A stretch of 64,000 nucleotides of DNA from Balanoglossus misakiensis (GCA_040954595.2 CM082585.2:2944902-3008901), one strand, 5' to 3'; positions 33,901 to 63,495 are shown, counted from the first letter of the stretch. Notes: generated by a model not told the origin, from the letters alone. Program-made: numbers and translations.

Positions 33901-36900
33901 CTGTTGTGAACCTGCCTGGGTTGGTACCTCAGCACTTGATGACGTGGCCTTGCGCTTAGGCTAAATAGTCTTGCCCTTCGAAGTAGCTTTCCGCTTCGAT
34001 GGCATGCTGTTGATTTAAATATTAAGTACAAGTAAAGTGTGCTAAAAATTATATGCCCCTATTGGCTAAAATAATCGAATAACATAGCTATGTAGGAGTA
34101 CCAATAAAATCTGTAAAATGTAAAATAAACTATCAGCAATATACTCCTCAGAAAAACAACCCTTCTAATAAAGGGTATTGTGAGTTAATTAACGTGAAAA
34201 AGGAAAACACCTTATAAATGGCCACCATATGATATGGTTACCGAGAAAATTGATGTATAATACTTGTGACATGCATAGCAAAACCACCACTGGGTAACGA
34301 TAAAATTGCCAGAATGTCACGACCCGAGGTAATGGTTCGGCGGGAAAAGTCAAACAAAGTAGCAAAATAAACCTGCTAAAATTGATCATGTGACCCGTCA
34401 GGCGGGAATTGCACCGTGAAAAGATGCAAGCACTGATTTATAAATGATCCCAACAATAAATCCTGACAGAGACAAATTAAAATAAAAAGTAAACGTCTTT
34501 TCTATGAAAAAGACTATCATTTGTATCGCCCGATAATTTCTGGCGAGTAAAGATACCTTCACTTGTATCATGTTGCACTCGTACAATGAAAAGTCTAGAT
34601 GTAATATAACCAAGTCTCAAAATTTGAGAGAAGAAAGTGCGTAATGTAATGTAAAATGAAAATAAACCACGTAGATGAAAACCTTGGAAAAAGGTAAAAA
34701 CGGACGCCGTAATATATCAATGTGGGGCTTGTAAAACTATACCATAAAATGTAATTACAACTCGGGATGCAAAACTGTGAAACGGCGTTAAATGAAAGCT
34801 ACTATGAAATATTGATTAACATATATACCGACAACTACTTCGTAAAAAAGAAAATAGCCTTAGCATTTACCGCCAATGCTATATGCAATTCTCTACAAAA
34901 ACCTTATGAATGGTAGGAAATTGGCACTTGCCTGAAAATTCGAAGAAAAAGTGAAAATTCGAGGAGATGAACCAGCTCGTTGTCTTGAAGTCACGGCTGT
35001 AAAATGGAAAAGGCTGTTCCTAGTATTGACTCCCCCCCCCCCCCATAGGAAACTGCAAATATTGTCAAGGCGGGAAAATGAAGTTGCTCTTCCATGAAGT
35101 GTCTCCCCCCGGAGACTAAAGTTCTGTAAACCTCCCTGTCGGATAATAGAAAACTGTAAAACTTGATCACTAAGAAGCATGTCTATAAATGCGATTATAA
35201 TAGTGATATATTAACGTATTTTTTCATGTAGAATTAACATTATTTCATGTAGAACTAAAGTTTATTACATATAGGGTTAACGTTTATTACATATAGGGTT
35301 AACTAATAACGTATTTTTTCATGTAGAATTAACATTATTTCATGTAGAACTAAAGTTTATTACATATAGGGATTAACGTTTATTACATATAGGGTTAACT
35401 AATAACGTTTTTCTTGTAGAATTAACGTTATTTCATGTAGAATTAAAGTTTATTACATATAGGGTTAACGTTTATTACATATAGGGTTAACTAATAACGT
35501 ATTTTTTCATGTAGAATTAACGTTATTTCATGTAGAACTAAAGTTTATTACATATAGGGTTAACGTTTATTACATATAGGGTTAACTAATAACGTATTTT
35601 TTCATGTAGAATTAACGTTATTTCATGTAGAATTAAAGTTTATTACATATAGGGTTTACGTTTATTACATATAGGGTTAACTAATAACGTATTTTTTCAT
35701 GTAGAATTAACGTTATTTCATGTAGAATTAAAGTTTTTTACATATAGGGTTAACGTTTATTACATATAGGGTTAACTGAAAACGTTTATTTCATGTAAAA
35801 TTCAAGTTTATAACATATAGGGTTAACGTTTATTACATATGCAGCTAGCTGATAACGTTTATTATATGTACATTACGTTACCACTCCATTAAAACTAAAA
35901 CCCGAGTTAGCAGGCCTAACTCGGGTCTGAGGGGGTTGCCTTATCAGTGCCTGTGTAAACAAAACAATCACAGATTACGTTGTAGTAAAGTGCAAGGTCA
36001 AGATTAATTCCCCTGCTCAGACTGATTACCTTTACAGAGTATTCATGGGCAGGATTATTTTGGTTTGAAATAAAATAGTAGATGCTTAAACTACTTGTAA
36101 AACACTAATATTATGCACTATAAAACTGTTTGTGATAATAATAATTTGTTGACGAATTCATGGTTATGCTACTTATACCCAAATACATGCCGTGGGATAC
36201 CCCATATGTGAGCGTAGTAATCTTACATCAAAAGTAGTCCCATGCTCAAAGTAATCTTGACTTAAATTTGGCATTTTATCAGCAAACACCTGATAGGAAG
36301 TCAGGTTTATGGGGGACTTAGCTTCCTTGTGTGTACATTACCTGAGATAAAAAGGGGGGGGGGGGTGGTTGGCTGCCTCTAGTTTTTAATGGAGTGGTAA
36401 CGTAATGAGAATTAAAGTTTATTACATACTGGGTTAAGTGTTATTACATATTGGGTTAGTATTACATATTGGGTTAAGTGTTATTACATATTGGGTTAGT
36501 ATTACATATTGGGTTAAGTGTTATTACATATTGGGTTAGTATTTTATATTTTGGTTTAATTATTACATATTGGGGTGATACTGCCAGAGGGACATTTGCT
36601 AGAGTGCCATGTGCAACGACACTCCCGCTAAAACAAGTTCACTTCAGTCTCTCTCAATCTCCCTCTCTCCCTCTCTCTCTCAATGATGATAAAAGTTGCC
36701 CTTTTAATCTGTATTGCTTTATAGTGATGAGTTTACGGGAGAATTTCGTGGACCTTGGCCAGTTCAACATCAAAACTTTCTGGACAAGACATCGGTGCGC
36801 CTCAAACCTCTCGCAGGCCATTTTGAATGGCGAGGAAACAAACGATAATATCTATATCCACCAGGAAGACACGTGGTTCTGGGTGTACCTCTTCTGTGAC

Positions 36901-42900: not shown

Positions 42901-45900
42901 TATCGATGGGTAGACGGCAGTGCTGTGAGCTATATAGATTGGAATACGGAAACGTAAGTATTGCGTTTCTTATTCGAGAAAAGATATTCTTATATGGTGG
43001 TGTTTAGCTATTAGAATGATATATTAAATTATGCACGTTTGGCTGGTTACTTTTTTATACATATACACATCGGAATAGACACAGGAATGTGATTTGTATC
43101 ATTGGAGAAACTTAGGGTGCTACCCGATATAGGCTTCTAAACAAACTCATGTGGTGTTCTTTAAGACGTTTGCAGTACCATTTACAGTAGACAGTATATA
43201 TCAGTGGGCGAAGAGTTTTCCTACCACATATTAGAGATGGGCTTTTCATAGGTGTAGAATACCTACACAAGTAACAACCTGAGTTTACGAAGCACTTAGC
43301 CATTGTTTCCCCGCGCTAGTTTGTACGGTTCTCAGCCTGATGGTGGAACCCTGGAGAATTGCGTCATCATCTACTTGGACAGTTTGCGGACAACCAAACA
43401 ATGGCACGATAAGGTTTGCTCCTACAACATCACAGACCAGTATCTCTGCAAGAAACCAGCAACCAAAGACGAAAATACCCGTTAGTGTTGTCCTTTTTTT
43501 ATTTCAATACGCAATTTTCCTATTGAATCCTCGAGACGCTGCGACATTTCGTGTGACCAAGCAGTTCATATGGGAGGACAAACAACACAGGCATGGCCTT
43601 TTATGTTTAACGGCACAAAACTTATTTTGTGAAGCTTTACACCTATTTTAGTATCATACATAGCTTTGTAAATAAAACATGAGTCTCAGCTGGAGGAGTA
43701 GTCATAACAAATCGTATGCAGAAACATAATAGGCTTACCTTTCAGGGTAGGTATTAAAATCGCCAAGGACTGTATGGCACTACAACGATGTTTACATAAA
43801 GGTCTTAATAAAATAATAATTGTAGTCCCATGTCTCATAATGAATAACAATTTTATCCTGCTTTTGACAGCTGACCTATCTTATGAGGATATTGTCACAG
43901 TACCAGTCGGTAAGAAGTTTTTAGAACGAACGAACGAATGAATGAATCAATCAATCAATCAATCAATAAATGAATCAATCAATCATTGAATCAATCAATC
44001 AATCAATTGGGCAATGAACGGATGGATGGATGGATGGATGGATGGACGGACGGAAGGGAGGATAGATGGACAAAAATTGTGTACTGATAAATAAATATTT
44101 ACATGTTTCTTTTACTCCAAAAATGAATTATGTACACCTCATACTAACGGAAGAACAAGGATGTAAGGTTTTGTAAAGGTCATTGTTGTGGCCTGCTATA
44201 ACGTAAAAACCATACAGCGAAATATTACATGCACAGAAAATAAATGCCGACCACTTCTGTCGTTTTTATTAGATCACAGCAAGGAATGTGGGGATCAGTA
44301 TTTCACTTGCGACAACGGTGAATGTTTACATAAAACATTCTTGTGCGATTCAGTCTCTGATTGTCATGATGGCTCCGATGAAGTGAACTGCCGTAAGTAG
44401 CGATCACTTACAGTCGTACATGTGCTGTATCTCCACCATACCGTACAATAGTGATGAATGATAACAATGATATGCCATAAATAGAAACTAAATTATTGCT
44501 GATGTTAGCTTATCAGTGTATGTCTCCTTGTATAAGGGAGGGATTGACGGAAACAGACATAAAACAGTGACTGTTTTCCTACATCTGACTTTTTCATTAC
44601 CTGTCTTCGATAACACAGCCGAAGAATGCCAAGGTTTCAGATGCGGCAATGGTCGATGTATAGCCTGGTCACGCTATTGTGACCGCCGAGGTGACTGCCT
44701 TGATGGATCGGATGAAAACCAGTGCGGTAAAGTTCAGAAATATTTAGATTTCTAACATCCGCCTGCTTCCTCGTAGGTTTGTTATTACTATATACCAAAT
44801 TGGAACTATATCACCACGTATTATTTGAAAACAATGTTTTCGGATATGCACACTTTAACGGTATACATCCACCGGTAAAATGCAATGTTAACACTGTTAC
44901 TATGTAAATTCAAATGTAGCCAACCGCAGATTTTCAGTGGGTGTCAGTCGCGATAATAATTAACGTCACATGGTAATTCGAATACATAGACACGCCACTT
45001 TGTCCATATATAGGCATTTGTACATTAAAAGTATCAGCAAGTGTCAGAGACCGAATCGCACAAGAATGTTTTATGTAAACATTCACCGTTGTCGCAAGTG
45101 AAATACTGTCAACGTATTTTCCTTATCATTTTTGTATGAGAACGTATACCACTTTGCTCCACAAAAATATACTGAACACAACTTGACGGATCAAGCCTTC
45201 TTTCTGTGCTAAATAGAGTATCCACCGTGTCCTGAACATCAGTGCGACGATTCCAAGGAGTGCATTCCCTTCCGTGCTCTGTGCGATTTCAAACACCAGT
45301 GTATGGACAACTCCGACGAGAAGAGCAAGATGTGCTCAAGTAAGTCGTTATCATTAACACCAAAATTAAATTTGCTAAATTACAACACATTAGTTAAAGG
45401 GGAAAGATGTCGGAACTACACATGTGCCACTTTTCTGTTTATAAACACTAAGTCGCCACTGTTCATGGAGGCCCTTACAACTAATTGCGTTTCAAAAAGT
45501 AAATTGGAAATACGTTAAGCAGTTAGAGGCACTTTGCCATGGTGTACAATGTACAAAGTAACAACAACATTGTTTGTAATTATATACATTGTAGCGGTTA
45601 CACTAGGCACCAACTTTGACTAGGTAGCAACTTAAAGCATTTGACCAATACCAGTAGACGCAGATGAGACGATCCCCACCCTTTAAGTGGCGATTTCGTA
45701 ACGGCATTTGATTGTTGTGAGATTCATCGTCAGATATAGTAAAGTATTGACAATACGTTTCATATAGTTTTGAGTAATTACGCGTTCTATGAGTGTAGTA
45801 GGTGAGTGAATGGACGGTTGTGTGTGCGTGTGCGTGTCTGTCTGTGTCTGTGTGTGCATGACAGTGTGTCTTGGAGTATGAGTGTTCGCCTTGTTTCAAA

Positions 45901-48900
45901 ATATCTGCTCTTTCATCCAGCAACGTGCTCGAGTAATGGTGGATTTCAGTGTCATGACGGGAGCTGTCTGCCCCCTCGTGTTCAATGCGATGGCATCGTT
46001 GACTGTATGGGTTGTGTCGAGGGACTTCAGCAAGATGAAGGCGAAACAATATGTGGTATGTAATAGACAATTTCCCGAACTCCACGACACAATGTGAGAT
46101 CTTGCGAGGCTAGACAGTTCATATTGCAGGACATTCTTATGTATTATAGGACCAACAACACATGACCAATCGTGTCAAAGGCACCAGATTGACAATGTAC
46201 ATTTATCTCTGCACCTATTCTAGTTTCATTCAAAGGTTGACTTGGCTAGTTAACTAACCAAGGTCTCGCGAGAGCTCGTTACGAGCGGAACAATCACCAA
46301 TTTTGATGGGCAATCGTAACAACTTCTCACATGGACCATACATAACAGAGATTACGTCGCAACATTTGGAAACGTCGTCGTTTTTATTCCATTAGCTGGC
46401 ATGGTGGTGGAGGATGTAGCGTTGTGTCCTTACCGGGATTCTGGGTATGGTCTCAGATGTGAAAATGGTGTTTGCGTAGCAGACTCGTTGAAATGCATCT
46501 ACCAAAAGGATGAATACAAGTACGAAATCGGTTGCCGTGATCTCACACATCTAAGAGGATGTGGTATGTCGTTCACATTGTGACTGTACACTAATATAAT
46601 TTCTGTCAGTTTACTATATTTTGATAGTAGTAATGTTATACTCCACAAGGTACTTTTTACTAAAATCAAATATACATACACAGAGTTGTGATTGGCGTAT
46701 ATTCAGTAATCGAAATAGAGAGCGATTAACTCAGTTAATCGGAATTCTCAGTATAAAATCTGAATAATGATTGACGACCGGAAATATGTTATCTTTTGCA
46801 GCCAATTTTGCCTGCCCTGAAGACAGGGCAATGTACAAGTGTCCTAGTAGCTATTGCATTGATCTGTTCAGACGTTGCAATGGAGAAAACGACTGTCCAA
46901 ACGCAGAGGATGAAATTGGTTGTGGTATAAGTGATTCTGCTCTGTTCCTTGTTCATCTATGAACGTCCCGTTTGAATCTCAGTCGTCAGAATCTAAACAT
47001 AAATGACGAAGATGCAATCACTAATCATTTATCTAGGAAATGCATTGTACTTCGCAAATCTGATAGCTCTTTAAACCCACTGAAATATTATTTGAATGTA
47101 GAAACAATGTTTCGTCTACAGTAAACTTGACTTACACATTTGCAAGAAAGTTGCCTGACTGTGTACTTTGTAAAATCACTACATGAACTCGTATATTTTT
47201 CCCTTTCCCTTACAAAGACCAATACACCTGCCCCGCAGGAACAATTAGGTGCGTTGAATCTGGCAACTGTTTACCAGAAAGCCAGCTATGCAATGAAATA
47301 CGGCAATGTCGATCTGGGTCGGACGAGCTCTATTGTGGTAAGAAAGGATTTCTTGTTCTTCATCAAGACACAAATTCACATAGGCAGTATGACATTTGTC
47401 AAAAACCTGTAGAATTAATCTTTTTAATCGCCGAAATGTTTTCAATATTTACACGGGCGCAAGCAATGTTTGTTAAGTAAGTCAGTAAGTAAGTAAGTAC
47501 ACATTCCTTTAATTGTAATTATTTTAGCGTCACTCGTTGATATCTGATTCAACATATTAGTATAACATAAAGTGTGTTGTTCGCATGACAACATATGGTG
47601 CTTAGGATGTTTAGGGTGACCCTTTTTTTTTATTTGTTTCTCATCTCCAGAGGAACACTCAGGCAGGGCGGGCGGGCGAAATAAAAAAAAAAACAAGTAC
47701 AAAAAAAATGTTCACTTTACAATGTGCTCTGTCCTTTTATTCTTTTACTTTACAATTTCTTTCCTCTCCCCTTGATTGGATTCCTGGTTTTTGGCTGCTT
47801 TCCTTCCTTTCGGCATAGTGAACATGTTGGGAGAACAACTTTAAAAAATGCAGAGTATTTATCGACATCCGGGAGTTCAGTCTGTAGTGAAAAACATCAA
47901 AGAGTTTGGTTAGACAGATGAAGTTATTGAACACAGAATTTTACTTGTAAATGTTGAACACACTATACAAAGATCTTGTACTTCAGCACCAGCAATTGTT
48001 CGTATTGATATAAATTGTCAGCCATGCAAATCCCTTAAAAGTTGTTTTTATACAGGCAGATATATACATGTGGACTACAACTCATATGAAATTTTGTGAT
48101 TACTCCGTCTTGGTTGCAATGACCTGCAAATACTGGTTCATTGTTATAAAATTACTTACCTCAGCTTCACCACACCAAACACAAACTTGTGGGAATAATC
48201 CACTTGAGTAGAATTGGAATTCTACATGGCTACTGCAGGATAAATTGCACCTCACAACCACAGTCCTATGTAGATCGTGCTCATCACCGAATAAAGGTGA
48301 TCCACACGTATAATGTAGTTCCTGAAAAATGAGCAAATTAGAACTCAAAGTGAATTTTTGAAACTGTTTTTTTTTAAATATTGGAATTTAGTAAAGCATA
48401 CTATCTAATGTTTAAATACAGTTGCATTGTACATATGTAGTGTAGCTGTTTGGCAATACAGATATTCTGCTATTTATGATACTTTGCTCTTTGAGAGGAG
48501 GTACATGGATTTTTATAAATAAATAAATCAAAGAAAGGAAAATAAGTTTTAACACTACGTTGTGGTTTACTTACATCTATTTGCATTCTGAGTTGAAGAT
48601 GTTGTTGACTCCACAACCTCTTGTCAGAATATATACATCTGGGCTTCCTACAAACCACACAGGTGATCTCCGCACGGACTTTCTCCTTGATCAAGAGGCG
48701 TCTGTTAGGGCCATCATGGTCTTCTTTCTTTGAAGGACGGTCTACTTCATCTGTGTCATTTCCATATATATCTTCAAAGTCAGCAAACTTTGTCTTTTCC
48801 ACTGTAGAATACTGTGGGTCAGGTAGCCAACTCAGTTTGGCAAATTCTTCAAGAGGCAGTCTTGGTGGCATGCAAAAAGCACATATTGTTTGTGTCTCAG

Positions 48901-51900
48901 CCTGTTCACATATCTTGACTGCATTTTCCATTGCTACTTCATTCCTACCAGCTTCCACTAACAGCCATATTCCAGACCAGGTTGTAGCATGCTGTATTCC
49001 TTCAAACAACTGGTACTTGACCTCGCTGTTCAGACCAGCAACACTGTGTAGTAGTTCTTTTCCTTCTTGGCGAAGGGTTGCGTTTGCAGGAGCACTGGCG
49101 CACTTCTTCAACTGGAATACATATTGTCGTTGACGAGCATGTCTTTCCATCCACTCCAACAGTTCTGTTCTCTTCTGCAACTCTTTCTTTGTTGTGTCAG
49201 TCACCAACAAATCTTTGTCGATGCTGTTAGCAGACAAAAACATCTGTGAAATCTCTTCTTCTGTTGCTGGAGGATCTGTCTTCACCTGTCTCTCCTTGAG
49301 GGCAAGCCTGCCAAATCTGTCATCCAATAGACGTTTCACTGGATCAAGGCTTCTTTGCAGGTGCCCCTTTATTTGGGGATTTTCTTTGGATTTGTCTCTC
49401 AACTCTTGCATATTTGTACAGGATTTGGTACTCTTTTCTATGGCCGGATCCATCTCTTCTCTTGACAGAGCAACTCCATACAATGCAAGATTTAAAATAC
49501 TCATGACTCTTTCAGCAGGATTTATCCAACTTCCACCTGGTGCAGTAATTGCAGCAATAAGCATGTCGAGGTTTCGCTGAGTGAAACTTGCTACAATGGG
49601 CAACCTTTACAGATCCGTGTCGCACATTATGGTCTGGCCCACCATCACTGTACTGTAGGTCGATAGGACTCCCTTGTTGGTCAACGTGATTGATAGCCTG
49701 TTGTAATTCAACAGCATGTCGCAATGGTGTTGATGGTTCAAACACTGCATCTTTGATGGATACGAAGACTTGGCCACGATAGAAAGAATCTGTATCCTTC
49801 TCTGGTATATCACAGACAAGTGTGACTGAGGGTACCAGCTTGAACCTGTGAAAGTCATGGTCAAGGGCTACTGGTTCCCTACCATTCAGCATAAGCACTT
49901 TCTTGCCACGATCAAGTGAAGCTAACGGTGCGTTTGGCTCACCAATATTAATGGAATGTTTGTCATCACCACATGACAGTGTTGACCATTTCCTGTAAAT
50001 CACAGCAAAGCATCGTAGATACTTGAATATGGCAATGCAGTAATATGAATCTTCATGATCTTTATGCAGGCTTCGTGACTGAATTTTATATCGCAAGGGG
50101 AAGCGACCAGTATAATTCAGTGCACTGTGTGTGGATGGATCTTTAGGTTGACACTGTAATCGCACCCATGATTCTGATGGTACAGGGGTATTTTCAGGAA
50201 GCTTACTTTTCACCATGTTGATCAGATCACGAACAGAAATGGCAACAGGGAGCTGAACTGTTGCACTGTGTCTGCGTTCATCAGCGGCTGCAGGAAAGTT
50301 GTGTTCCAGGGTATCACCAAGCTTCTCCCAGAAAATATCATACTTCTCCTTCCTGCCAGTATTTAGGTGTCTCAAATCAACCACTAACTCTGGATCGTTG
50401 CACTGGAGGGCTATTCTCATCCTCTCATCTACAGCTTTAGTCACAGTACTTGGTGCTTTAGAACAGTCATTGGTCAGGAAAGCATACATAGCTCTGTACA
50501 CTGCTGGTTTAACATCACAAATATTGCTGAAATGGTGGAAGAACTCAGCCTTCATTGCACGGGTATGGTATTGTGGGATGTTCTTTGATATTTCATGACT
50601 TAGTTTGAAGTACATCGTACTGTCACGATCTGACTCCTTTTCAGGCAGTTTCCAAAAGAAGATGTAAGTTGTAATACCACCGAATGGTGAGTACTTGAAG
50701 AGAACAATCGGTACAGAAAGGCCATGTTGTCGTAGTTTCTCCACAAATTTGTACTTCTGGTCAGGATTACAGTCCTTCATCTCTGGTGAGTCATTCAGTT
50801 GCACTGGTTTGTAGACATCACTGTCTCTCATTTCACGATCCAGCCTTGCAAATATCAGTGGTACTGGTCCACTACTTGTGACATCCCAACACTTTCCATC
50901 TTCTAATGGTACCCGGGCAGGTGTAGACTTCACATACAAGTTCTGCATATCTTCATTTTTCTTCTCTAGATAGGACATGTAGGTACGGCATGTTGTAACA
51001 AGCTCTTCTAGTGCAGTATATATGGGTTCCCACACAGGCTGAGTTAACCACGCAGTCATCAAATATTCTTGGATGTATCCTACATGTCTCTCCATTTCAG
51101 TCCTCTGTATACTAGGTTTACTTTTCTTCTTGGCTTTGTAATCATTGTATGAAAAGAATGAGTGTCCCTGGGTTTTCTTTTTATACAACAGTTGGAATAA
51201 TGCTGGCATTTTCAATGATCTCTGGAAAAGGCTGCTCTCCCAGTGAGGATCTAAGTACCATAGGATGTCAGTAATTGCCTGAATGAATGCTTTGCCCGAT
51301 GAATCAGCAACTGAAGGAGAAAATCCAACTGTAGGATGCTGTGTGTTAAAGAGCTGAAACAGAACCCAAATATTCTTGTTAAAATTTCATACCAAAATAT
51401 TAAAAATACAATAATTTTCTCATTAAAAATCAAATTTGTACATGTATGTCCAAGACATCAATGTTTCAAAACCAGCCACACTTGGCCTGGGTTACTTTGT
51501 ATTTGAAATCATACTAAAACAATTCAAAAAGATACAGCTATTATGTGCATTAAATACTACCTCTATGATATCATTGAACAGCTGCTCCTTTGAGTTCCTC
51601 ACTTTATTCTTGATTTGTGATGGCAGAACTCGCTTTCTGGATGATGACATCATCAGGCTAAATGCATTTGACTTTGCTGATCTGTCTGGAGCATCTATAG
51701 AAAATATCAAGTACAAACAATCATAAAATGTTTAAGTCTTATGAGAATATTAAATTTTTTTGTTTCCAACATTTGTTTTAACACATTGTATATGTGTGAT
51801 AAAGTTTCCTTTTAGCCATTTGTTCAACTTATACTTCCACATGGTGATGGAACATACTAAAAAATAATTATTTGTACACTACTGAATATCTCAATGTGAA

Positions 51901-54900
51901 TTCAAGCCCCTATAGCAACATCATTTGATATTTAGAAACATAGAAATTTCATTTATAAAATCTGCATCAAATATTGGCATTTCTGTGTAAATTAATCTGC
52001 TGCATAATTGCTTGCTTTAGTTATCTTTGTGCATGCAAAATCACAAAGATTTATGATTTCCACTCTAACACAGCAAGAATCTAATCACAAATACATGCAG
52101 TATGAATATAGAATACAACAATCCATTAGTGAAGCAAAACATAAAAATGACCTTTAGTGAAGATGCATACATTGCATTCAGTGCATTTATGTGCTTTCTA
52201 GGGTTAAACTATTGCATAGAATCCACCACCACCATACACAATGTACACCATCAAGGTAAAATAACTACTTACATGGAAGTAAATTCAGGACAAGACTGAT
52301 TGGATTGCTGGTTTGAACAAAAAAATTATATTTTTATTTCAATTTAATCTCGACATTCTTTGAAAATCCATAGAGACACTCAAACAGGTTGACATACATC
52401 AGCCTCGACTTGTGATAGACAAACACAATGTACAAAGGCAGTATTGCCTGATTAATGGCCAGTCGACTCTGTATAGTATTCAATCGTCCATGACACACTG
52501 TGAAAAATGATTTGATTATCACTGAGCACATACTACGACTGCGGAAGTTTTGACATATTTGACAAGGGACCGGACATCCATCTGCGCCAGTACCATACAA
52601 GCACAACATCGTCTGACTTAACATGCATTCAGAAAACGGTAGAAAACATAACTGTTTCTTTGTTTTTCAATGGAAATAGGATGAACCTAACGAAATTAGC
52701 TCCTTGGGCTTGTAAGAGTTTGACAGTTGCCGTCATCGGCGCCGTGACCATGTGCAGATCTGCACCCTGGTCAGTGGGACCTTTATGTCCTAGTTTGACA
52801 GTAACGCCATGGTCTGGGTATTTCTCTTCATTGCCAACTTTACATATTATTTTCATGACATCAGAAAATGTTGTGGTGTCAGAGACATCACACACCCATT
52901 GCTTCTCTTCGAAAACTCTTCCCCCGGCCTCGATGGCCTCAGCCATAAACGATAGACGCTGGTCTGACACGACCGCCATGATGAATATGACGTCAGATTT
53001 GCAGACTGATCTGCAAAATCTCACGATTTGCCGATGGTGGCGCTGTTGCTAGGATGATCGCCTCAGAGTCGGCGCAAATAAAACAGTTTTTTTTATTTTC
53101 ATGTCGGAGCTGAAATTTACGGTCGGTCGGGAGATGAGAAACACAGAAAATAAAAATGTCACCCTTATTACGAGAATAAAATATTCTTGAACAAATGATC
53201 ATTTACATAATTATTACTGCGCGCTTAAATTATAATGTGCTCCTATATTTTGCTTCCCAGATATTGAGTGCCCGTTGGGATGTACATGCACGGGATTTCA
53301 GTATGACTGTTCCGGTAACGATGTCGAATCGATCAGGGAAGTCGATCCGCTGATTGCGAGGTCACTGTAAGTTATATAGCCCTCACCCATATATGGTATT
53401 TGCCATATACCAATTATTATATGCCTATAATGTGCGCGTATTGGTACCATGGTACCAGCAAGACCAGTTGGTCTCCACTGAACAATAATTCGCATTGGCG
53501 TGTACTATGATGGCATACTTTAATGCATATTTTTACAAAGTTCGGAAATGATTTCCTTATCTAAAATGAACTGTTGATTTCAAAATCAGATATGTCTATT
53601 TTCTGCTATAAGTGGCTGTTACATTCTTACATTCGTGTAGAATTGTTCGCGATTTACGAGGAGGAATACTGGATCTTGCCGGGAATAACTCAACATGGGA
53701 AGAATTCTTTGACCCTTACATTCTGGTTGGCGAACTGTGAGTACAACACTATACATGTAAATGCCATCAATCATAGGCCTAATAGTGACGACGAGACTGA
53801 ATGATAACTACAAACGCCTTGTCTTCTCAAAACAATTTACCCTAGGAGATAGGTGCCGTTAATCAGAATTTTTGGTGAGGAAGGTTTGAGAAGTCCATTC
53901 TATGTAAAAAATGGTGCTGATTCCAAAAATGTCAGTCTTATTGACCCCACTCAAGACAAAATTGCCATTTTGGCCATTTTTAACCCAAAAATGGTATTTT
54001 TAGAAAACACTAAAAACACACTGTTTTCGTCACATTCTGAGATCTGATGACATACGATATACTTATTCTATGTAAAATTTGGTGAATATTACGAAAAAAG
54101 TAGTCCGATTGACCTAAAACAACACAAAATTGCCTTTTTGACCATGCAGCGCAGGTATTGTCCGAGACGCGCAGCGTCGAGGACAATACCGAAGCGTACG
54201 ATGTACGAGGACATAAATCCCGGTATTTTGTGAATAACCTTATTATTATACACCTTTTCCGGACGTCCTTGATGAACGATAAAGAATAAATTGGCCGCTA
54301 TCGGACTTTCTAGTTTTCAGACACTGCCATGATGTAATTTGCATATCGAACGCGCCTTGACCACGCGCATCAGGTGATGCTAGTGTCGAGCTGCCGACGT
54401 CTCGCGCGCGACGTTCTACGCTGCTTGCGCTGAGCTCGTTCTGGAACTTGAAATGAACGCGCTCGCCTGTTCGTTCACAGATTCCTTCGACTGAAATTTC
54501 AGCGTGGATTTTGACTTATTTCGCATCTTGGGTCACCAATAATTTTGTTTAATAACGGCTGTGTACTTTTTATATACATTTTTGTCAGAGTAGGGTTAAT
54601 ATCATTGTTTACATTGATCACCGGTCCTGTGAGGTCAAAGTCACAATGCGTCCAATAACCCTGTGGGTTATGGGACTCCGCGTCCTCATTTGAATAATTA
54701 TTGTACGGTGATACCGCGAATTATTGTATCACGGAACTCCATAGGTTACAGCAGTAGGTGTATAATAATATAATTTATATCATGATACCTCCGTCAAACT
54801 GATTGGACAGGAGTGCAACCCAACGATGCTAGAATACTCAATAGAGCACTGCTAAAACTGGCCCCTGAACTAGCACGCAGCAGGGAAAATGTGGGCTTAA

Positions 54901-57900
54901 ACCAAATAAACATAATACAAACACTTAAATTCCTTGACGTTTTAATTTGGAACTGCTGTTCATTAAGACTGCATTTCTGGAAACAACACCTATTTTACAA
55001 TAAATGTACTTTTCACACATCATAGAATCTCCAAATAATAAGAAAACAGTTTGAAAAGTGGCTTTTTGGGCAAAACGCACTGTTTTCTTGAGTGGCGCCA
55101 GTAAAACTTTTTGTTGGGAATTTTTTCACATAGAGTGGGTATATAATACATCATCATCTCCGAAAGTGAAGAAAATATAAGCACGATTATAATCACTATT
55201 ATAATCGCATTTATTGACATGCTTCTTAGTGATCAATAAAAGTTTTGGGTGGTTTCTAGAAATGACACTTTTTGAGCAAAAACTTGCCAAAAAGGCACTT
55301 TTATCTTGAGTGACATCAATAAAACTGCTTTTTTTTGGAAATTTTTCACGTATAGTGGGCATATAATACATTATCAGATCTCCGAAAGTGAAGAAAATAT
55401 ATAAATTTTGAGTGTTTTCTGAAAATGACGTTTTTGAGGCAAAAAGTGGCAAAATGGCATTTTTTTCTTGAGTAGGATCAATAAGACTGCTATTTCTGGA
55501 ATCAGCACCATTTTTTACATAGGATGAACATTTCATATATCACATGATCTCTGAGCTTTATGAAGAAAAGTTTGTTTTTAATGTTTTTTCTAAAAATGGC
55601 CTTTTTGGGCAAAAACTTTCCAAAAGGGCATTTTTGCATTAGGTTGGGTCAACAAATCTGCTTTTTTTGGAATAATCACCAAATTTTACATAGGGTGGGC
55701 ATATAATACATTATCAGATCTCCGAAAGTGAAGAAAATATATAAATTTTGAGTGTTTTCTAAAAATGACGTTTTTGGGCAAAAAGTGGCAAAAATGGCAT
55801 TTTTTCTTGAGTAGGGTCAATAAGACTGCTATTTCTGGAATCAGCACCATTTTTTACATAGAATGGACATTTCATATATCCAATGATCTCTGAATATGAA
55901 GAACACAATTTGTTTTTAGTTTTTTTGTAAAAATGACCTTTTTTGACCTCGAAAAGTGGCCAAAAATGGCATTTTTGTATTGATTGAGGTCAAAAAGACT
56001 GCTTTATTTTTTAAAGTCACCACTTTTAACATAGAATTGACTTTCCATATATCACCAGATAAATCATTATGTGTGTTTTATTTTTTTTTCTAAAAATGAC
56101 ATTTTTGGGGCAAAAAATGGTCAAAAAGGCAATTTTGTGTTGTTTTAGGTCAATCGGACTACTTTTTTCGTAATATTCACCAAATTTTACATAGAATAAG
56201 CATATCGTATGTCATCAGATCTCAGAATGTGACGAAAACAGTGTGTTTTTAGTGTTTTCTAAAAAAGACCATTTTTGGGTTAAAAATGGGCAAAATGGCA
56301 ATTTTGTCTTGAGTGGGGTCAATAAGACTGACATTTTTGGAATCAGCACCATTTTTTTTACATGGAATGGACTTCTCAAACCTTCCTCACCAAAAATTCT
56401 GATTAACGGCACCTAGCTCCTGGACTAATTGTCTTGCCCAAAATATGCTGAAAAATTGCTGTTCAGCGAAGCAGTGCGATCAGCAGTGCGCAATCGACGT
56501 TTTTCTGGCGGGTTGTCGGTAAAGTCCTCCCAAGCGATTGCAATAAACTCAGCCTGGCCAGACACCGGTTTGACGAGCTGTAAAATCCACTGACAAAGTA
56601 AAACTTGAAGTAGTGGCGGATTTAAAATTTTCCACAGACTCTTAAATAGGCAAGCAGAATCGTTGTTCACGGTCCCTCCGTGGGAATTGCCGAATGATAT
56701 TGTAATGTCCGAGCAATGGACCAAATGTGAGTCGATGTGTGTTAGATTGCTTGATAGGTACCCAATCGCGATTGCACCCGAACACGCGACTGGTTTCGAT
56801 ACTCCCTAGTCAGATCAGCAATCATTCGCTTAAACTAAAATACCATTATTCCAAACTGACGTAAACCAAGTTTCCGTAATCGTTGGCCTTCTCGTGTCCC
56901 CGACAGTTTGGTACGAGTTTGCGCCTTGAAGTTCAACGAATGATCTCACGACCAGCAACTGAGAGTCATTAGTAGAAGTATAATGCAACTGAGAGTCATT
57001 AGTGCGCTGTGGTCGCTACTCGAACACTCTCGCCATACGTAGGACTATCCACGAACATTCGAAAATTTAGCTTTGGCGAGACTGTACAGTATCAGGTTTA
57101 TGTTTTATAGATACTACTAGTACATGTTGAAGAAGTAGAGTGACTATGTTTTCTGTTGGTGGGGTCATAATTTACCACGTTTATATGATTGTCAACCGTG
57201 TGCTGAAAGTCAGTGATGTGTGCTTGAATCAACCAGTTGTATCAGGCGCGCGAGTATAACTACGGCTACGACTAGACTGTTCGCACCACATACTCCTGTT
57301 GTTTTGCATCATAGTCTCTTCATGGTGCTGTCCATGATTGCGGCAAAGTTTACACAACTCAGATCTCTCATAGCATGTACTCTTTGTTTGAAGTGTAATT
57401 GATCTCCTATATATAGCAAATTTTGAACACTTTACACCTCTGCGCGTCTCTGAAGATTGACAGCTGTTTGAATGACATGGCCATTGTCTCCCAGGGACGC
57501 GATCCATTGTTCTGAAAAGCACTGAAACCAGATTTCGCTCAAAATCATCGTTTTTTCAAAAGCTCGTGTACTTTTTCGTCGATAACTTTATGTTGTGTGT
57601 GTTTATAAAGCCGACTACTGTCGTGGTGTGGAATATTTCTTTATGCTTAGACCTGTTTGGGCCGATTTTCATAGACCCAAGATTGTTGGTGTTGTCTGTT
57701 GTCAGTCAAACGGCATTAAGATTCGCCACCGATTTGGGGGCCTTTTATACCCCGCACCGGGGTTTAAGATTATTTACATTACTTTCTGAAAGCATAATCA
57801 CACATTTCATATAATGCCTATTATGACTTGCTGCAGCGATCTTTCAGGAAACCAAATAGAATCATTTTCGAGTCGTCTGTTCCAGGGATTGACTAACATA

Positions 57901-60900
57901 GCAAAATTGTAAGTATTTGTATAAGGTCAATTGACATGTGCAGTGTATTTATCTTCGTTTTTTGAAAATCTGCCAGGCGCTGTGTATTCTCAAGCAATGA
58001 ATTCTTTTATATTTTACCATACTGCACTTTTTTCCTGTCCCAGCGCAACACTGCCATGAGGTGAAATTGGAACAATACTATCGCTAATTTGTAATACACG
58101 CAGATCGTATCGTACCCTACGCATAATTTGAAACTGTATGCCAATAACTGATAAGAGAGATAATGTGGATTGTATATTCAGATTCCTATTATCCAAATTC
58201 CTTTTTCATCACATTGTGAAATTAACGAAAGTTAGTATAAAGGAAATGTATATTACTTTGCAGAGTAATAAGAGATAACGATCTTCTTACCTTGTCAGAA
58301 GGTATTTTTAACTCTGTACCTAAACTGAGACATCTGTGAGTATCTGACATTTTTTTAAATTGTTCAATGTGGCAGAAATGTGTTCATCCGTGACGACTTC
58401 CTGTTAACGAGCTTCTGTGCTTCGTGGGTTTTTATTCCATCATTCAACCTACGTCATTCGTATGTACATCAAAATTTGGAATTTGAATGTTCACAAAGAT
58501 CGTACTCAATATCATTGTGCATTACATGGTGGCAGATAACTAAAATAACTCTCAGAGCAGTAATCCTTTAGAAGGAATTTTTAGAACTCTTTTAGAATAC
58601 ATGTAGTTAAACAATTGTATTGTACAGAAGCAAATAAATGGCTTCTATGTTCTGACACAGTTGAATGTTTCCAGTGCGAGAACGCTGTCTGTAATTACAG
58701 TAACATATACATCTTTTCCGTCCTAGGAATATGGAGGTCAATAGAATTACCTTTTATCCCGAGACACTTTTCGATGAACTGGACCATCTCTCCAAACTGT
58801 AAGTATTACAGCCAATTGCGCTGTTTGTGATGGGGAAACAACAGAAATCCGCAATCTTGGCATACCTGCTGTCGCTCGAATGATCAAAGATATTTCATGT
58901 CCTTTGATTTTATGACAGATTGATCTTTGTGCCCACCGCAGTACATGTATTTCATTTATTCTTGCAATGCTTCGAAATATTTTCTTTGTTTAGCTTTAAA
59001 CTGGTGCAGAAAACATGGTCACTACCAAACACTCTCATAAAAATTATATTAAGAATTCCAGAGGCTGAAACATCGGCCTTGTTTTAGACGTCTCACTATG
59101 CCTATGTAGTTTCTGATTCGTTTTTTTTTTAATTCTATAGGAAAACCAAACTTATTGATAGAATGCTTTGAACGAAGGTTAATGTGGTCTTCTTATACAT
59201 TCCCTTGCAGTGTTTCTGATGATTACGCTTTCTGCTGTCTGGCCGGCTATGAAGAGGGTAGAATTACAGACTGTGTACCATCCAGTGACATATTCTCGTC
59301 ATGCACTGACTTGATCAGCGACACCTTCATGCGATTTGTCATCTGGGTCGTGGGGTTGGTAGCGTTCATCGGTAACCTGGTGGTGTTACTTCGACAGGTT
59401 AGTCTCTACGACACCGACAAAAGCAAGGTGAGCATGATACTGATCACCAACCTTGCTTTGGCGGACATCTTGATGGGCTCCTTCCTCATGATCATCGCCA
59501 TTGCCGATGTCTACTACAGAGGAATATACGTCACACACTCTAGACAGTGGAGAATCAACGACTTCTGCGTCATAGCTGGCGCAATGGCCACCGTATCCAC
59601 TTTGATGTCGGTGTTCATCGTGGGCCTCATGGCTGTGCAGTGTGCCTTGGTGGCAATGTTCCCTCTAGGCAATGTCTTCATCACGCCATTCGGTTCCAAA
59701 GCGCTCCTCTTCATTGCCTGGTCCTTTAGCGTGTTAGCTGCTGTTGCACCGAAGCTCGACTTTGAGTACTTCGACGAATTTTTCTACGGCCGCACTGGAA
59801 TGTGCCTGCCAATTCACCTGCACAGTGATAAAACGCCGGGGTGGGAATACGCCATGTTCATATACATTATCTCTGTTGGCGTGGGGATCATTGTGGCCGT
59901 AGGTTCCTATGTGGCAGATAGGGTTGGCAAGAAACGAAGTGAGGATTACAGTAACGTTCGCGTCAATATGGTTGAGGAGAGCCTAGTAGCAGTGACCTCT
60001 ATCTTGGTAAAAACTGACCTCCTGTGCTGGATACCCGTTGTTATCATTGGTCTATTAGCTATTGGAGGAACAGGGATCCACTCAAACCTGTATGCGTGGA
60101 CATTCATCGTCATTCTACCCTTTAACGCGGCTTTGAATCCGATTCTGTTCAACTACAGAAGTAAGGAGATAGTTAAGAAGAAACTGATGGAGGATGAAAA
60201 TGTCCGCCCAATCGGTAAAAATATAAGACATGTATAGACTAACTATGATCCCTCTGTCCCATAAGAAAAACCTTCGCTTCGTTCATCGACAAGGCATCAT
60301 AATGATTATTAATCAGGGTAGCTGGGATTGCTAGAGATTACGTCTATATCGCCCATACATCACACATCATTCACTGTTACATACTACATCCTCTCTTTTT
60401 TGATATACTATATTCAAAATCGGTGTCGACAATGACAACGGTTTTTAAATTAACACACACTATGCTAACATAGCTGGCCGTTTTAGCATTGTGGAAGAAA
60501 ACGAAATCTGGTGTTGATACACATACAACAAATACTGAAAAATTAGCCAAAAGATGAAGCTAGGGGATACGTTATGGCGACATATTCGATGGTATGCATG
60601 AGTTATTCGGACGATTTTTATTATGTTTACGAAGAATGATGATCTGGACAGTATCAAAGGTAGGAACTTAATGTCTATGAGAATCAGGCTCTCACTCATT
60701 TCTCTGTTATTCAGACCCGGCAACAGTGCAAGCTGTCTTTTACGATATTGTGACCACTCGATTGTTCTACGTGATTCCCCCAAGTCTAGTCGCTCACCTG
60801 TCAATGACAGCATGGCTGGCTTACAGCGAAGCCAACTACATCACTCAACTGGACATCAAAACTATGATCAATGACGTCAAGAAGGCGCTGTCAAATTTAT

Positions 60901-60962
60901 ATAAGCGGGGGCTCTACCATGGCAGTGTGGACTTCGATCACCTTTTAATTTATGTCGACGCT
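21864..60962 (+). CDS. Giant mosaic GRL101-like (LDLa-LRR, LGR type C) GPCR with a multi-lectin ectodomain and a C-terminal kinase-like exon; 3' end not located
   Basis: 28 exons join in phase with no stop (5631 nt). The LDLa array, LRRNT/LRR, hinge (FCC..C.P..DIFSSC.DL) and 7TM fit GRL101-like receptors. Confidence 0.8.
21975..22150. repeat. GA-rich low-complexity repeat
   Basis: Degenerate (GA)n purine tract. Confidence 0.9.
22351..22497 (+). CDS. Trefoil (P-type) domain exon
   Basis: [25 protein letters not shown] six-cysteine pattern, 147 nt, phase 1-1. Confidence 0.8.
22757..23753. mobile_element. Non-autonomous TIR element with TAG...CTA ends (Academ-like)
   Basis: TIR tagactctctcacagccc / gggctgtgagagagtcta, flanks atgt and atgg, subterminal hairpins at both ends. 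Confidence 0.75.
23814..24140 (+). CDS. F-type lectin/discoidin-like domain, first half
   Basis: NIALNK..TVDG..NCH..VIDL..YNV..V..R, 327 nt, phase 1-1. Confidence 0.75.
24290..25064 (-). mobile_element. Helentron/HINE-like non-autonomous element, copy 1
   Basis: Terminal hairpin agctcggctgacacaagtgacagcagagct, (GGAC)n tract and ~137-bp internal tandem units. A second copy in opposite orientation lies at 61159-63495. Confidence 0.7.
26103..26911 (+). mobile_element. Internally deleted Tigger/pogo transposon
   Basis: TA TSD, 23-bp TIR cagtagaccctcgctaagtcgcg and repeated subterminal taagtcgcg motifs. Confidence 0.92.
26545..26772 (+). CDS. Truncated pogo/Tigger transposase (HTH_psq/CENP-B N-terminal domain only)
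   Basis: [49 protein letters not shown]. Confidence 0.75.
   Translation: MSKRKLASVSVREKLSAIERVKNGVAKAKVARDLGVGESTIRGWMKTEEKLRQFVFEVDEEAGLSRKRAKHVMVT
27996..28727. mobile_element. Non-autonomous TTAA element (Kolobok-like), copy 2, inverted relative to copy 1
   Basis: Same TIR and TTAA TSD as 14710-15444, with a reverse-complementary body. Confidence 0.9.
30374..31280 (-). pseudogene. Tyrosine recombinase of the Ngaro element (frameshift near 31205)
   Basis: [19 protein letters not shown] and [11 protein letters not shown] motifs. Confidence 0.9.
31282..32990 (-). pseudogene. Reverse transcriptase/RNase H of the Ngaro element (frameshift near 31560-31600)
   Basis: [37 protein letters not shown] and [15 protein letters not shown] motifs. 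Confidence 0.92.
32830..34005 (-). pseudogene. Gag-like ORF1 of the Ngaro element (stop at 33961, frameshift near 33220)
   Basis: [19 protein letters not shown] and a C-terminal Cys/His finger CWRF..C..CRFDHKC..CG..H..C. Confidence 0.8.
35871..36407. mobile_element. Non-autonomous TIR element (MITE)
   Basis: ~27-bp TIR cattacgttaccactccattaaaa, inserted in the right arm of the foldback element. Confidence 0.8.
36725..36991 (+). CDS. F-type lectin/discoidin-like domain, second half
   Basis: ..[23 protein letters not shown] matches the C..GRYV..L..CEVEV pattern. 267 nt, phase 1-1. Confidence 0.75.
37639..37758 (+). CDS. EGF domain exon
   Basis: [35 protein letters not shown]. Confidence 0.93.
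37872..38069. repeat. (TACA)n microsatellite
   Basis: Seen directly in the sequence. Confidence 0.97.
38852..39127 (+). CDS. Link (Xlink)-like module exon
   Basis: [25 protein letters not shown] four-cysteine pattern, 276 nt, phase 1-1. Confidence 0.72.
39312..39760 (+). CDS. FA58C/discoidin domain, exon a
   Basis: [39 protein letters not shown]. Confidence 0.92.
40264..40417 (+). CDS. FA58C/discoidin domain, exon b
   Basis: [20 protein letters not shown], phase 0 to phase 1. Confidence 0.9.
40983..41285 (+). CDS. PAN/apple domain exon
   Basis: [20 protein letters not shown] four-cysteine PAN core, 303 nt, phase 1-1. Confidence 0.78.
41758..42195 (+). CDS. CUB domain exon
   Basis: [47 protein letters not shown]. 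Confidence 0.93.
42404..42622 (+). CDS. C-type lectin exon a
   Basis: [34 protein letters not shown]. Confidence 0.9.
42872..42953 (+). CDS. C-type lectin exon b
   Basis: [23 protein letters not shown], phase 1 to phase 2. Confidence 0.9.
43320..43480 (+). CDS. C-type lectin exon c (QPD, galactose type)
   Basis: [23 protein letters not shown]. Confidence 0.9.
43871..43909 (+). CDS. Linker micro-exon
   Basis: 39 nt, phase 1-1, ttttgacag acceptor and GTAAGA donor. Confidence 0.6.
43925..44070. repeat. Compound (GAAC)/(AATC)/(GGAT) microsatellite
   Basis: Seen directly in the sequence. Confidence 0.9.
44273..44392 (+). CDS. LDLa repeat 1
   Basis: [26 protein letters not shown]. Confidence 0.93.
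44619..44726 (+). CDS. LDLa repeat 2
   Basis: [25 protein letters not shown]. Confidence 0.93.
45217..45339 (+). CDS. LDLa repeat 3
   Basis: [25 protein letters not shown]. Confidence 0.9.
45921..46055 (+). CDS. LDLa repeat 4
   Basis: [26 protein letters not shown]. Confidence 0.9.
46396..46563 (+). CDS. LDLa-like repeat 5 (GRL101-type variant)
   Basis: [24 protein letters not shown]. Confidence 0.88.
46802..46924 (+). CDS. LDLa repeat 6
   Basis: [30 protein letters not shown]. Confidence 0.92.
47218..47337 (+). CDS. LDLa repeat 7
   Basis: [32 protein letters not shown]. Confidence 0.9.
47614..53164 (-). mobile_element. Zator-like DNA transposon, full length, inside a GPCR intron
   Basis: TTA TSD on both sides, imperfect TIR GGGTGAC...TTTCTCATCTCC, and a transposase with DDK, DHDF, DGGPD and APG.S..N..ER motifs. 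Confidence 0.82.
47750..52981 (-). pseudogene. Spliced Zator-like DDE transposase (frameshift near 49600)
   Basis: Exons near 52981-52652, 51694-51561, 51353-~48575, 48322-48160 and a last exon ending [15 protein letters not shown]. The C-terminus is Cys-rich. Confidence 0.75.
53261..53366 (+). CDS. LRRNT exon
   Basis: [20 protein letters not shown], phase 1 to phase 2. Confidence 0.9.
53641..53736 (+). CDS. Divergent LRR exon
   Basis: 96 nt, phase 2-2, LDLAGNN..F...V.EL. Confidence 0.7.
53845..56420. mobile_element. Foldback-type element with ~300-bp TIRs and internal tandem subrepeats
   Basis: 53845-54142 is reverse complementary to about 56118-56420. Related subunits repeat across 55000-56100. 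Confidence 0.85.
54143..54815. mobile_element. Crypton-like non-autonomous element nested in the foldback
   Basis: Hairpin gtattgtccgagacgcgcagcgtcgaggacaatac, inverted repeat tattattatacacc (~54242) / ggtgtataataata (~54757), and a ctgattgg motif. Confidence 0.55.
57837..57908 (+). CDS. LRR exon
   Basis: 72 nt, phase 2-2, [25 protein letters not shown]. Confidence 0.92.
58264..58335 (+). CDS. LRR exon
   Basis: 72 nt, phase 2-2, [25 protein letters not shown]. Confidence 0.9.
58727..58798 (+). CDS. LRR exon
   Basis: 72 nt, phase 2-2, [25 protein letters not shown]. Confidence 0.9.
59211..60214 (+). CDS. Hinge and rhodopsin-class 7TM exon (GRL101/RXFP-like)
   Basis: [66 protein letters not shown] and [13 protein letters not shown]. 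Confidence 0.95.
60715..60962 (+). CDS. Cytoplasmic exon resembling protein-kinase subdomain VI (pseudokinase-like)
   Basis: The phase-1 acceptor matches the 7TM exon donor. Encodes [32 protein letters not shown] and ends in a GTAAGT donor. Confidence 0.65.
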
Positions 60963-61158: not shown

Positions 61159-63495
61159 TTAGCTCTGCTGTCACTTGTGTCAGCCGAGCTGTAGCAGTAA
61201 GTGTCCGTCCGTCGTCCGTCAACTTTTGGTATTTCAATCTTCTTCTTTAAAACAACTTGGCATATTTAGCTGAAATTTGGTTGGAATGTGTGTTATGGTG
61301 CCCTTAACTGATTTTGTAAATTTGGATTTGATGGGGTCATGAATATGCAAATTAGATCTAAAAATAGAATTTTTGGTCAAAAATCTTCTTCTCCATAACT
61401 TCATGTACGATGGAGCTGAAATTTGGTAGGAATGTGTGTTATGGTGCCCCTACCTGATTTTGATAATTTGGATTTGATCGGGTCATGAATATGCAAATTA
61501 GATCTAAAAAAAGAAGTTTTGGTAAACATCTTCTTCTCCACAACTACATGTACAATGGAGATGAAATTTGGTAGGAATGTGTGTTATGGTGCCCCTACCT
61601 TATTTTGTAAATTTGGAATTGATGGGGTCATGAATATGCAAAGTAGATCTAAAAATTGAAATTTTGGTCAAAAATCTTCTTCTCCACAACTACATGTACA
61701 ATGGAGCTGAAATTTGGTAGGAATGTGTGTTATGGTGCCCCTACCTGATTTTGTTAATTTGGATATGATGGGGTCATAAATATGCAAATTAGAACCTTGG
61801 TGCTTCCTATTTATGTTGTTCTTTAGGATTCAATTCTTTCTTTCTTTAGCAAAATAGTCAAGTAAATATAGGGCTAGACCCACCACAAATTGCAACAGAA
61901 TTTTTTTCTTCAGAATATACTTTGGAGAGGTGTCTAGAACAACATATTAAAAATGCACCCGAATCCACCTTGTGGAAATATGTCTAATTTGCATAAATTT
62001 AATATTAGAGATTTTGGGGCCAAATATCAAGAAATAGACGCTTTTTTCCATGATTTTAAAGTTTAAAAACTATTTCATGTTCATGACAAAACATTTTGGA
62101 ATAATATTTGACATGGGCAGTTTTCATAATTTGTATAAATTCAATATGGCAGACAGTATTCCTAAAAAACATATTTGGGCTATATATTGGATACTTAGTA
62201 AGCTATTTTAGTGTTTTTAATTCAAAATTACCTCTATGACATTTGAAACAATGTTAAAAATATCTTGTTTACATTTACACTTTATATTTTGCATAAATCT
62301 AATATTGCCGCCAAATGAATATTCGACAGCTTATCATACTCCGGCATATATAATAAGGTTCTGGCATAGAAAATATGTTGTAGCATTAGGATTATATACA
62401 AAAGAGAATGAAAAATGCTTCCAGATTCAAGCATATACTGTAAAGTAGGTCCAAGTTACAGCTAATGGAGTAAAAAAATAGTAAGGTAATATCTCAGTTT
62501 ATTTAACAGGTGTTAGTCGTGTAACCAATTCGCCAGAATACGTTTCAGCTGATTTTTAAGACTTAGATATATGATTTTAAAATTATTTTCGGGCATAAAG
62601 TACGACTTACAAGTTAAATAATAATCTACAATCGTCATTTAATTGACATTTTAATACTATAGGAAGTATATCGTTAAACTGATTACTATACAGGTTTAAA
62701 GAAGTCATGTGATTATAATTATCTGTTGCATTGCTGTTATATTTTCGTTTTACATATTAATGAAAGAGAGTTTTATATTTGCTTCATTACTCATTCCTAG
62801 TGCTACAACATATATTCTATGCTAGAACCTTATTATATATGTCGGAGTATGATAAACTGTCAAACATTCATTTGGCGGCCATATTGGATTTATGCAAGTG
62901 CAAATGTAAACAATTTTTTTTCAAAATTGTTCCAAATGTCATAGAGGTAGTTTTGAATTAAAAAAAACACTAGAATTGCTTGCGTATTACCTGATATACT
63001 GCCCAAATATGTTTTTTTAGGAATACGTCTGCCATATTGAATTTATGCAAATTATGAAAACTGCCCATGTCAAATATTATTCCAAAATGGTTCTTCATGC
63101 ACATGAAATATTTTTAAACTTTAAAATCATGGAAATTCATGTTTATTTCTTGATATTTGGCCCAAAAATTTTCAATATTAAATTTATGCAAATTAGACAT
63201 ATTTCCACAAGGTTGATTCGGGTGCATTTTTGATATGTTGTTCTAGACACCTCTCCGAAATATATTCTGAAAAAAAAAATTCTGTTGCAATTTGTGGTGG
63301 GTTAGGTGCCCAAATCTCGTAGATTTACTAGACTACAATGAATCAAGCTGAATTAGGATAAATACTTGTGATGTCGATATTTGGTTTTGTTTACTAGAAT
63401 ACAAATGTTATGAATTAAAACCTAGGGTATTCATATCATTGCCCAGGTTACACTGTTAAAGTCAGCAGAGCTCTTTTGACCGATAGGTCACTTGT
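61159..63495 (+). mobile_element. Helentron/HINE-like element, copy 2, split by an insertion
   Basis: Reverse complement of 24290-25064. Homology stops at 61854 and resumes at 63336. Confidence 0.75.
61855..63335. mobile_element. Non-autonomous element with long TIRs and TAG...CTA ends (Academ-like)
   Basis: Ends tagtcaagtaaat and atttactagacta, several hundred bp of imperfect TIR. Comparison with the uninterrupted copy 1 gives a 3-bp target (aaa/caa). Confidence 0.78.

Follow-up and report, generated by a model that had tools for sequence, protein, structure and literature searches.

The window, a 64,000-nucleotide stretch of Balanoglossus misakiensis DNA, encodes an LGR-like GPCR that is predicted to continue by splicing into a dead, truncated kinase-like domain, and comparison with two acorn-worm gene models confirmed this fusion as real and conserved. 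This hemichordate receptor appears to hold its kinase remnant more tightly than its own seven-transmembrane (7TM) domain while its G-protein switches decay, and we assign a probability of roughly 0.47 to the reading that the tail serves as a nucleotide-free docking module, which would pass the signal to a cytoplasmic partner, either replacing G-protein coupling or adding to a weakened form of it. The receptor and its tail are laid out as follows.

59211-60214, plus strand: 7TM exon of a type-C LGR-like GPCR, taking in hinge, all seven transmembrane helices and helix 8/linker in one piece
60215-60714, plus strand: intron between receptor and tail, 500 bp, phase 1, GTAAAA...TTCAG
60715-60962, plus strand: tail exon, 248 bp, 83 codons, phase 1 in and phase 0 out; in the kinase alignment it supplies putative strands 4-5 and helices D and E of a kinase-like domain, together with its degenerate catalytic loop

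The 7TM exon lies within a long open frame (59110-60237, plus strand) and is bounded by an acceptor just before 59211 and by a phase-1 donor after 60214 (ATC G|GTAAAA); without splicing, its frame meets a stop at 60235-60237. The intron closes at 60714 with a pyrimidine tract and acceptor, and the tail exon, which encodes DVKKAL at 60873-60890, is open in phase 1 and closed after 60962 by a GTAAGT donor in phase 0. Among 70 donor-acceptor pairs, 12 of them open to 60962, the pair 60214/60715 scored best against the homologues (851 versus 813 for the next), and its product of 417 residues forms a single ungapped block against both. The junction is based on this conservation and on two predicted homologous gene models. 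A receptor ending at the 60237 stop, with the downstream exon belonging to something else, is very unlikely: both homologues are indeed predictions that are apparently short at their 5′ ends, yet only one of the 70 pairs yields the ungapped 417-residue match, it does so in two models from different acorn-worm genera, and the residues read through past the donor have no counterpart in either. The earlier note had proposed the phase-1 donor at 60214 and a following exon, open in that phase and ending in GTAAGT, through which the protein continues. Both proposals were borne out, as 60214/60715 is the best-scoring pair and both homologues run from the 7TM through the tail into 47 more residues, and all coordinates and the peptide given there are correct in the sequence.

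Searching 5.8 billion proteins of 145-2000 aa with the 82-residue exon product returned two proteins from 17 candidates, both from acorn worms, namely Ptychodera flava XP_070548178.1 (E 1e-34) and Saccoglossus kowalevskii XP_077870319.1 (E 5e-25). Each is a 487-aa model carrying the NCBI label 'GRL101-like', in which the 7TM leads straight into tail sequence, and each is annotated as 7tm_1 alone, showing that standard annotation has missed the tail. Saccoglossus is an experimental animal. A search of proteins of 854-2435 aa with the P. flava tail gave no further relative among 187 candidates, a tail profile recovered the same two proteins only among 6883 candidates, and metagenome and prokaryote contigs held no tail relatives, the two plasmid matches being due to chance. 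In one tail search, 14 of the 16 matches were rejected as chance matches to short repeats, 13 of them in beta-propeller proteins and the last in another kind of repeat protein.

The tail exon of the window is identical to P. flava at 65 of 83 positions (78%) and to S. kowalevskii at 51 of 83 (61%), compared with 70% and 50%, respectively, for the 7TM. Three-way identity amounts to 47/83 (57%) for the tail exon, 44/71 (62%) for the tail core and 121/277 (44%) for the 7TM, and between P. flava and S. kowalevskii alone the tail exon is 72%, the last exon 62% and the 7TM 52% identical. Judged from these alignments, the tail is under constraint and more conserved than the 7TM. The full homologue tail comprises 143 aa, of which 47 residues follow the equivalent of the tail exon. 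As these 47 residues gave nothing better than E 0.69 when sought in all 3740 ORFs of the window, the last tail exon likely lies beyond position 64000.

The 7TM matched Pfam 7tm_1 with E 5.9e-15 (55.9 bits against a cut-off of 30.5). For 7TM and hinge together, the best PDB match was the relaxin receptor RXFP1 (E 1.6e-36, the next being 2.1e-23), and all 18 sequences in the result bear LGR names apart from 8w1z, which we take to be a nematode LGR. By sequence, the receptor is therefore assigned as a type-C LGR-like GPCR of the rhodopsin class. The relevant elements within its exon are the following.

59269-59328, plus strand: conserved cysteine hinge motif before TM1, aligning with the LGR hinge and presumably an internal agonist
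59614-59664, plus strand: end of TM3, where D/E-R-Y reads Q-C-A (Q-H-A in P. flava, Q-R-V in S. kowalevskii)
60106-60213, plus strand: TM7, helix 8 and linker; the linker may double as kinase helix C (low-confidence columns)

Several residues with roles in G-protein activation, namely D/E-R-Y, NPxxY, a tyrosine in TM5 and basic residues in TM6, are altered in one or more of the three proteins. NPxxY has become NPxxF in all three species, the arginine of D/E-R-Y is absent from two and kept in S. kowalevskii, the TM5 tyrosine is phenylalanine in two and kept only in the window protein, in which, however, the basic residues found where TM6 begins in RXFP1 and TSHR are missing. These substitutions are suggestive of eroded G-protein switch motifs. 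Loss of the TM3 arginine alone is no proof of uncoupling, because the solved LGR 8w1z likewise lacks it and S. kowalevskii keeps it. The losses lower the case for function as a typical G-protein-coupled receptor and leave the assignment to the 7TM family as it is.

Within the tail, the kinase alignment is confident for helix E, the catalytic loop, strands 7-8 and the DFG position, and its central element is the loop:

60918-60947, plus strand: degenerate catalytic loop, ten residues, identical in all three species

Here HRD has become HGS, with the catalytic aspartate replaced by serine in all three species and the following lysine by aspartate, and the magnesium-binding asparagine of the loop is histidine, again in all three. 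DFG reads GFL in both homologues, the only two sequences in which that position is available. The tail aligns from column 62 of the 305 in the kinase consensus onwards, with TM7 and helix 8 lying upstream, and contains no counterpart of the glycine loop or the strand-3 lysine. With low confidence, the alignment can be extended so that helix C and strands 4-5 fall where the tail begins, helix C then sharing residues with the receptor helix 8/linker. At the other end, the homologue chain stops one helix past the DFG position, so that the later C-lobe helices are absent. The tail thus looks like a dead half-kinase, devoid of the ATP-binding strands and of the end of the C-lobe. Without such motifs, binding of Mg-ATP and transfer of phosphate are not expected of a kinase, and as predicted from its residues the tail domain should do neither.

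These assignments refine what the earlier note had read from the window. Its changes of HRD to HGS and of asparagine to histidine both fall in the right alignment columns. Its view of a dead kinase C-lobe joined to the receptor by splicing stands as regards a dead kinase-like domain, but not as regards a whole C-lobe, since the later helices are missing. Likewise, it had seen no N-lobe, which is correct for the region of the glycine loop and strand-3 lysine, whereas helix C and strands 4-5 may survive according to the low-confidence part of the alignment. A downstream exon with a DFG equivalent, which it had anticipated, has its match in the GFL of the homologues, but the exon itself was not found among the 3740 window ORFs. 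The one-piece receptor/scaffold that it proposed is retained here as a putative role.

The evidence for a kinase origin holds for the two full homologue tails and not for the window exon alone. Using the full tails, Pfam returned Kdo as the sole family matched (E 0.0077, below its curated cut-off), NCBIfam returned the MAD6 kinase (E 3.5e-5), Kdo kinase (0.029) and Bud32 (0.037), all below curated cut-offs, and PADLOC returned MkoA (E 1.3e-5), PD-T4-6 (0.0018) and mad6 (0.009); we take MkoA and PD-T4-6 to carry kinase domains. Neither PK_Tyr_Ser-Thr nor Pkinase matched the full tails at E<=10. We also built a kinase profile from bacterial Ser/Thr kinases, using the 74 loci out of 121 that had enough flank; their catalytic-loop motif is fixed by the pattern used for selection; a plasmid record examined for reference kinases contained none. 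Against this profile, the three-sequence tail alignment scored 36.7 with a probability of 74% and 62 confident columns, compared with a mean of 13.4 and a maximum of 22.8 for 300 column shuffles and with 14.3 for the reversed alignment. The window tail exon on its own scored about 0 bits against the same profile, its frame was outside the 12 best of the 3740 window ORFs, it matched none of the Pfam families at E<=10, and it found no kinase family in Pfam, NCBIfam or PADLOC.

Structural comparison had been proposed in the earlier note as a check on the kinase fold. When the P. flava tail was modelled in the ESM Atlas, all ten structural rows were protein-kinase clusters with TM scores of 0.57-0.65, spanning 107-119 of 143 residues, and none reached the bar for assignment to a named family; several of these rows align from query residue 1. 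The top Atlas feature matches were to an uncharacterised bacterial family (PF27690, four matches), for which, as PF27690/UCP004546, no literature was found, and the whole S. kowalevskii protein gave no usable match in the Atlas. AlphaFold2 with alignments of two and three rows reached mean pLDDT values of only 36.4 and 40.0, too low for fold searches based on it to be informative: with the tail model, Foldseek found nothing at E<=0.001, and no chain out of 48,161 reached Z>=5 in VIA-align. In a PDB sequence search with the tail, a flavin monooxygenase (E 0.07) outranked STRAD-alpha (E 0.38), CaMK1D and Greatwall, all of these matches being weak. The best non-hemichordate match among 1.84 billion proteins was a helix E/catalytic-loop stretch in a protein with kinase-like repeats. 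Protein P0003 (2179 aa) combines a PDS5 cohesion domain with nine short stretches of kinase-like sequence and is possibly a mis-predicted model.

On this evidence the tail very probably descends from a kinase, our confidence in ancestry and fold taken together being moderate. The contrary view, that the tail is a conserved non-kinase domain whose likeness reflects convergence on a helix-loop-strand motif, could draw on the weak scores of the window exon alone, on the monooxygenase ranking above the kinases, on the uncharacterised family leading the Atlas feature matches and on the fact that all catalytic motifs differ. It would, however, leave unexplained that the best matches of the full tails in three profile libraries are kinase families, that none of the 300 shuffles reaches the profile score, that all ten structural neighbours are kinase clusters and that the matched elements follow the kinase order, helix E first and the DFG position last, and we regard it as improbable. 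A dead kinase-derived tail fused to the receptor is accordingly graded as highly likely.

Like Kdo/WaaP, Bud32 and RIO, the tail runs on only briefly past the DFG position before a single helix, and the profile matches span helix E to the last helix, with the Kdo-type profiles covering that last helix beyond the DFG position; unlike the tail, those families are active enzymes with an N-lobe. This resemblance, which is weak (E 0.008-0.07), may reflect shortening and not descent. An atypical enzyme, still active as a minimal kinase or ATPase like those of the Kdo/Bud32/RIO group, would suit the length, the last helix and the invariance of the loop across three species. Nevertheless, the catalytic aspartate, the loop asparagine and the DFG aspartate are all replaced and no space is left between helix 8 and the domain for a glycine loop and strand-3 lysine, making an active enzyme extremely unlikely.

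If the tail is indeed a dead kinase derivative, a signalling-scaffold role would have slightly better than even odds. In the favored reading, a docking module, ligand would bind the LDLa/LRR ectodomain and perhaps its lectin/CUB parts, the conserved hinge would then move the helical bundle, and movement of TM7/helix 8 would be passed on to the half-kinase, which follows helix 8 directly, and would leave the tail differently exposed or clustered. A partner, for example an active kinase or an adaptor, would then bind or be released. A competing account, tentative in our estimation and still to be taken seriously, accepts the dead kinase remnant but retains G-protein output, with the tail acting as a structural or regulatory cap in folding, in trafficking, in holding the receptor off or in blocking arrestin, and not as the output. 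It is consistent with the good alignment of 7TM and hinge to Gs-coupled LGRs, with the TM3 arginine retained in the S. kowalevskii copy and with its absence from the solved LGR 8w1z; moreover, an inactive accessory domain alongside ordinary G-protein output is one of the models for GPCR fusions in the review of oomycete GPCR fusions by van den Hoogen and Govers (PMC6033456). The concurrent erosion of three switch motifs and of the basic residues in TM6, together with tail conservation exceeding that of the 7TM, argues against the cap and for the docking module.

Should the tail be the output, it would represent a new mode of signalling for a rhodopsin-class receptor and a natural test of how minimal a kinase fold a scaffold needs. 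The strongest form of the docking reading, in which an animal hormone-type GPCR lineage has swapped G-protein coupling for a nucleotide-free half-kinase running on from helix 8 and signals like a receptor pseudokinase, is less likely than not; if true, the tail would rank with the smallest scaffolds derived from kinases and stand as the most reduced member of an LGR-kinase family of animals not yet described.

Pseudokinase scaffolds such as STRAD-alpha, JAK JH2 and the kinase-homology domains of receptor guanylyl cyclases use a catalytically dead kinase fold for allostery or docking. They are two-lobed and mostly still bind nucleotide, whereas the tail has neither the ATP-binding strands nor the last part of the C-lobe and belongs to a GPCR. 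STRAD-alpha, which ranked first among kinases when the PDB was searched by sequence, has a similarly altered loop. On the receptor side, the hinge and the rhodopsin-class 7TM, and probably the LDLa and LRR exons, are shared with type-C LGRs (RXFP1/RXFP2 and the invertebrate GRL101), from which the window receptor differs by its kinase-like tail of ~130 aa, by the eroded D/E-R-Y and NPxxY motifs and likely by additional lectin, HYR, trefoil, Link, F5/8, PAN and CUB modules. The type C1/C2 naming of LGRs is used in PMC4079206, and GRL101 is described as LDLa repeats plus LRRs in PMC8286064.

Fusions of GPCRs to kinases are already in print. GPCR-TKL/K and GPCR-TK fusions are described from choanoflagellates and from sponges, as early-branching animals (PMC12716839 / bioRxiv 2025.04.15.649019), with no GPCR-kinase fusion functionally characterised according to PMC12716839, and GPCR-type transmembrane kinases of sea urchins and felids nest within the tyrosine-kinase clade (PMC10463195); the sea-urchin proteins of the latter may include LGR-type ones. 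The window protein shares with these fusions (GPCR-TKL of oomycetes and amoebozoans, GPCR-TKL/K, GPCR-TK and the metazoan types) a 7TM with a kinase-type domain C-terminal to it on a single chain. In contrast to GPCR-TK and GPCR-TKL fusions, which those accounts found via recognisable kinase domains, its tail is about half as long and passes no curated cut-off, and, unlike the GPCR-kinase fusions so described, it lacks catalytic motifs and sits on an LGR-type 7TM. Among the papers listed by full-text searches, in a body of literature with few subscription journals, none announces an LGR with a pseudokinase tail in its title or the opening of its abstract. The passages covered of the ambulacrarian LGR paper (PMC8286064) mention no kinase-like tail, the amphioxus GPCR paper (PMC2246102) does not contain the word 'kinase', and no further such tail appears in the passages covered of PMC4079206 and PMC6321704. 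A dead, truncated kinase fused to an LGR was thus not found in the literature searched.

Upstream of the 7TM exon, the window contains a series of exons of ectodomain type.

14318-42622, plus strand: ectodomain-type exons encoding two C-type lectin domains, HYR, trefoil, Link, F5/8 type C, PAN and CUB (Pfam E 3e-17 to 8e-4)
44273-46563, plus strand: four LDL-receptor class A exons and one more cysteine-rich exon (Pfam Ldl_recept_a above cut-off in four of the five)
53261-53366, plus strand: LRR N-cap exon (Pfam LRRNT E 0.036, below cut-off)
53641-53736, plus strand: first LRR-like exon, an exon candidate
57837-57908, 58264-58335 and 58727-58798, plus strand: three LRR exons of 72 bp, phase 2, with identity read from the motif

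A Pfam scan of two of the short LRR exons gave no match. The four exons of the LDLa region with checked ends are phase 1-1, and exon phases are compatible from the last of the LDLa-region exons through to the tail. The LDLa/LRR exons would belong to one putative receptor transcript, and the modules at 14318-42622 likely form the rest of that ectodomain. If all modules of 14318-46563 belong to the receptor, its ectodomain would be unusually mixed for an LGR. Both NCBI homologue models are probably cut short and missing most of the ectodomain, because they begin at a methionine internal to the LRR exon 58727-58798.

The window also contains repeats and putative mobile elements. Downstream of the tail exon lie a tandem array of ~145-bp units (61237-61793) and, in the intron after that exon, a nested inverted repeat of ~1.4 kb (61878-63302) that is foldback- or MITE-like, with outer arms of 192 nt that are 92% complementary. 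Between the LRR exons, a 2.6-kb element (53837-56428) shows long inverted ends with arms 93-98% complementary and an internal array of a ~170-bp unit. On the minus strand, the intron before the LRR cap carries three long frames of 378, 624 and 139 aa (48473-53048), which have no Pfam match at E<=0.1 and probably represent a transposon-borne gene. Further upstream, minus-strand frames at 30377-33960 (gag, reverse transcriptase/RNase H and tyrosine recombinase) presumably belong to a DIRS-type retrotransposon, a plus-strand frame at 3942-6473, broken by a stop, is taken to be a LINE-like reverse transcriptase, and gag/protease-like frames at 627-1985 on the minus strand presumably derive from an LTR retrotransposon.
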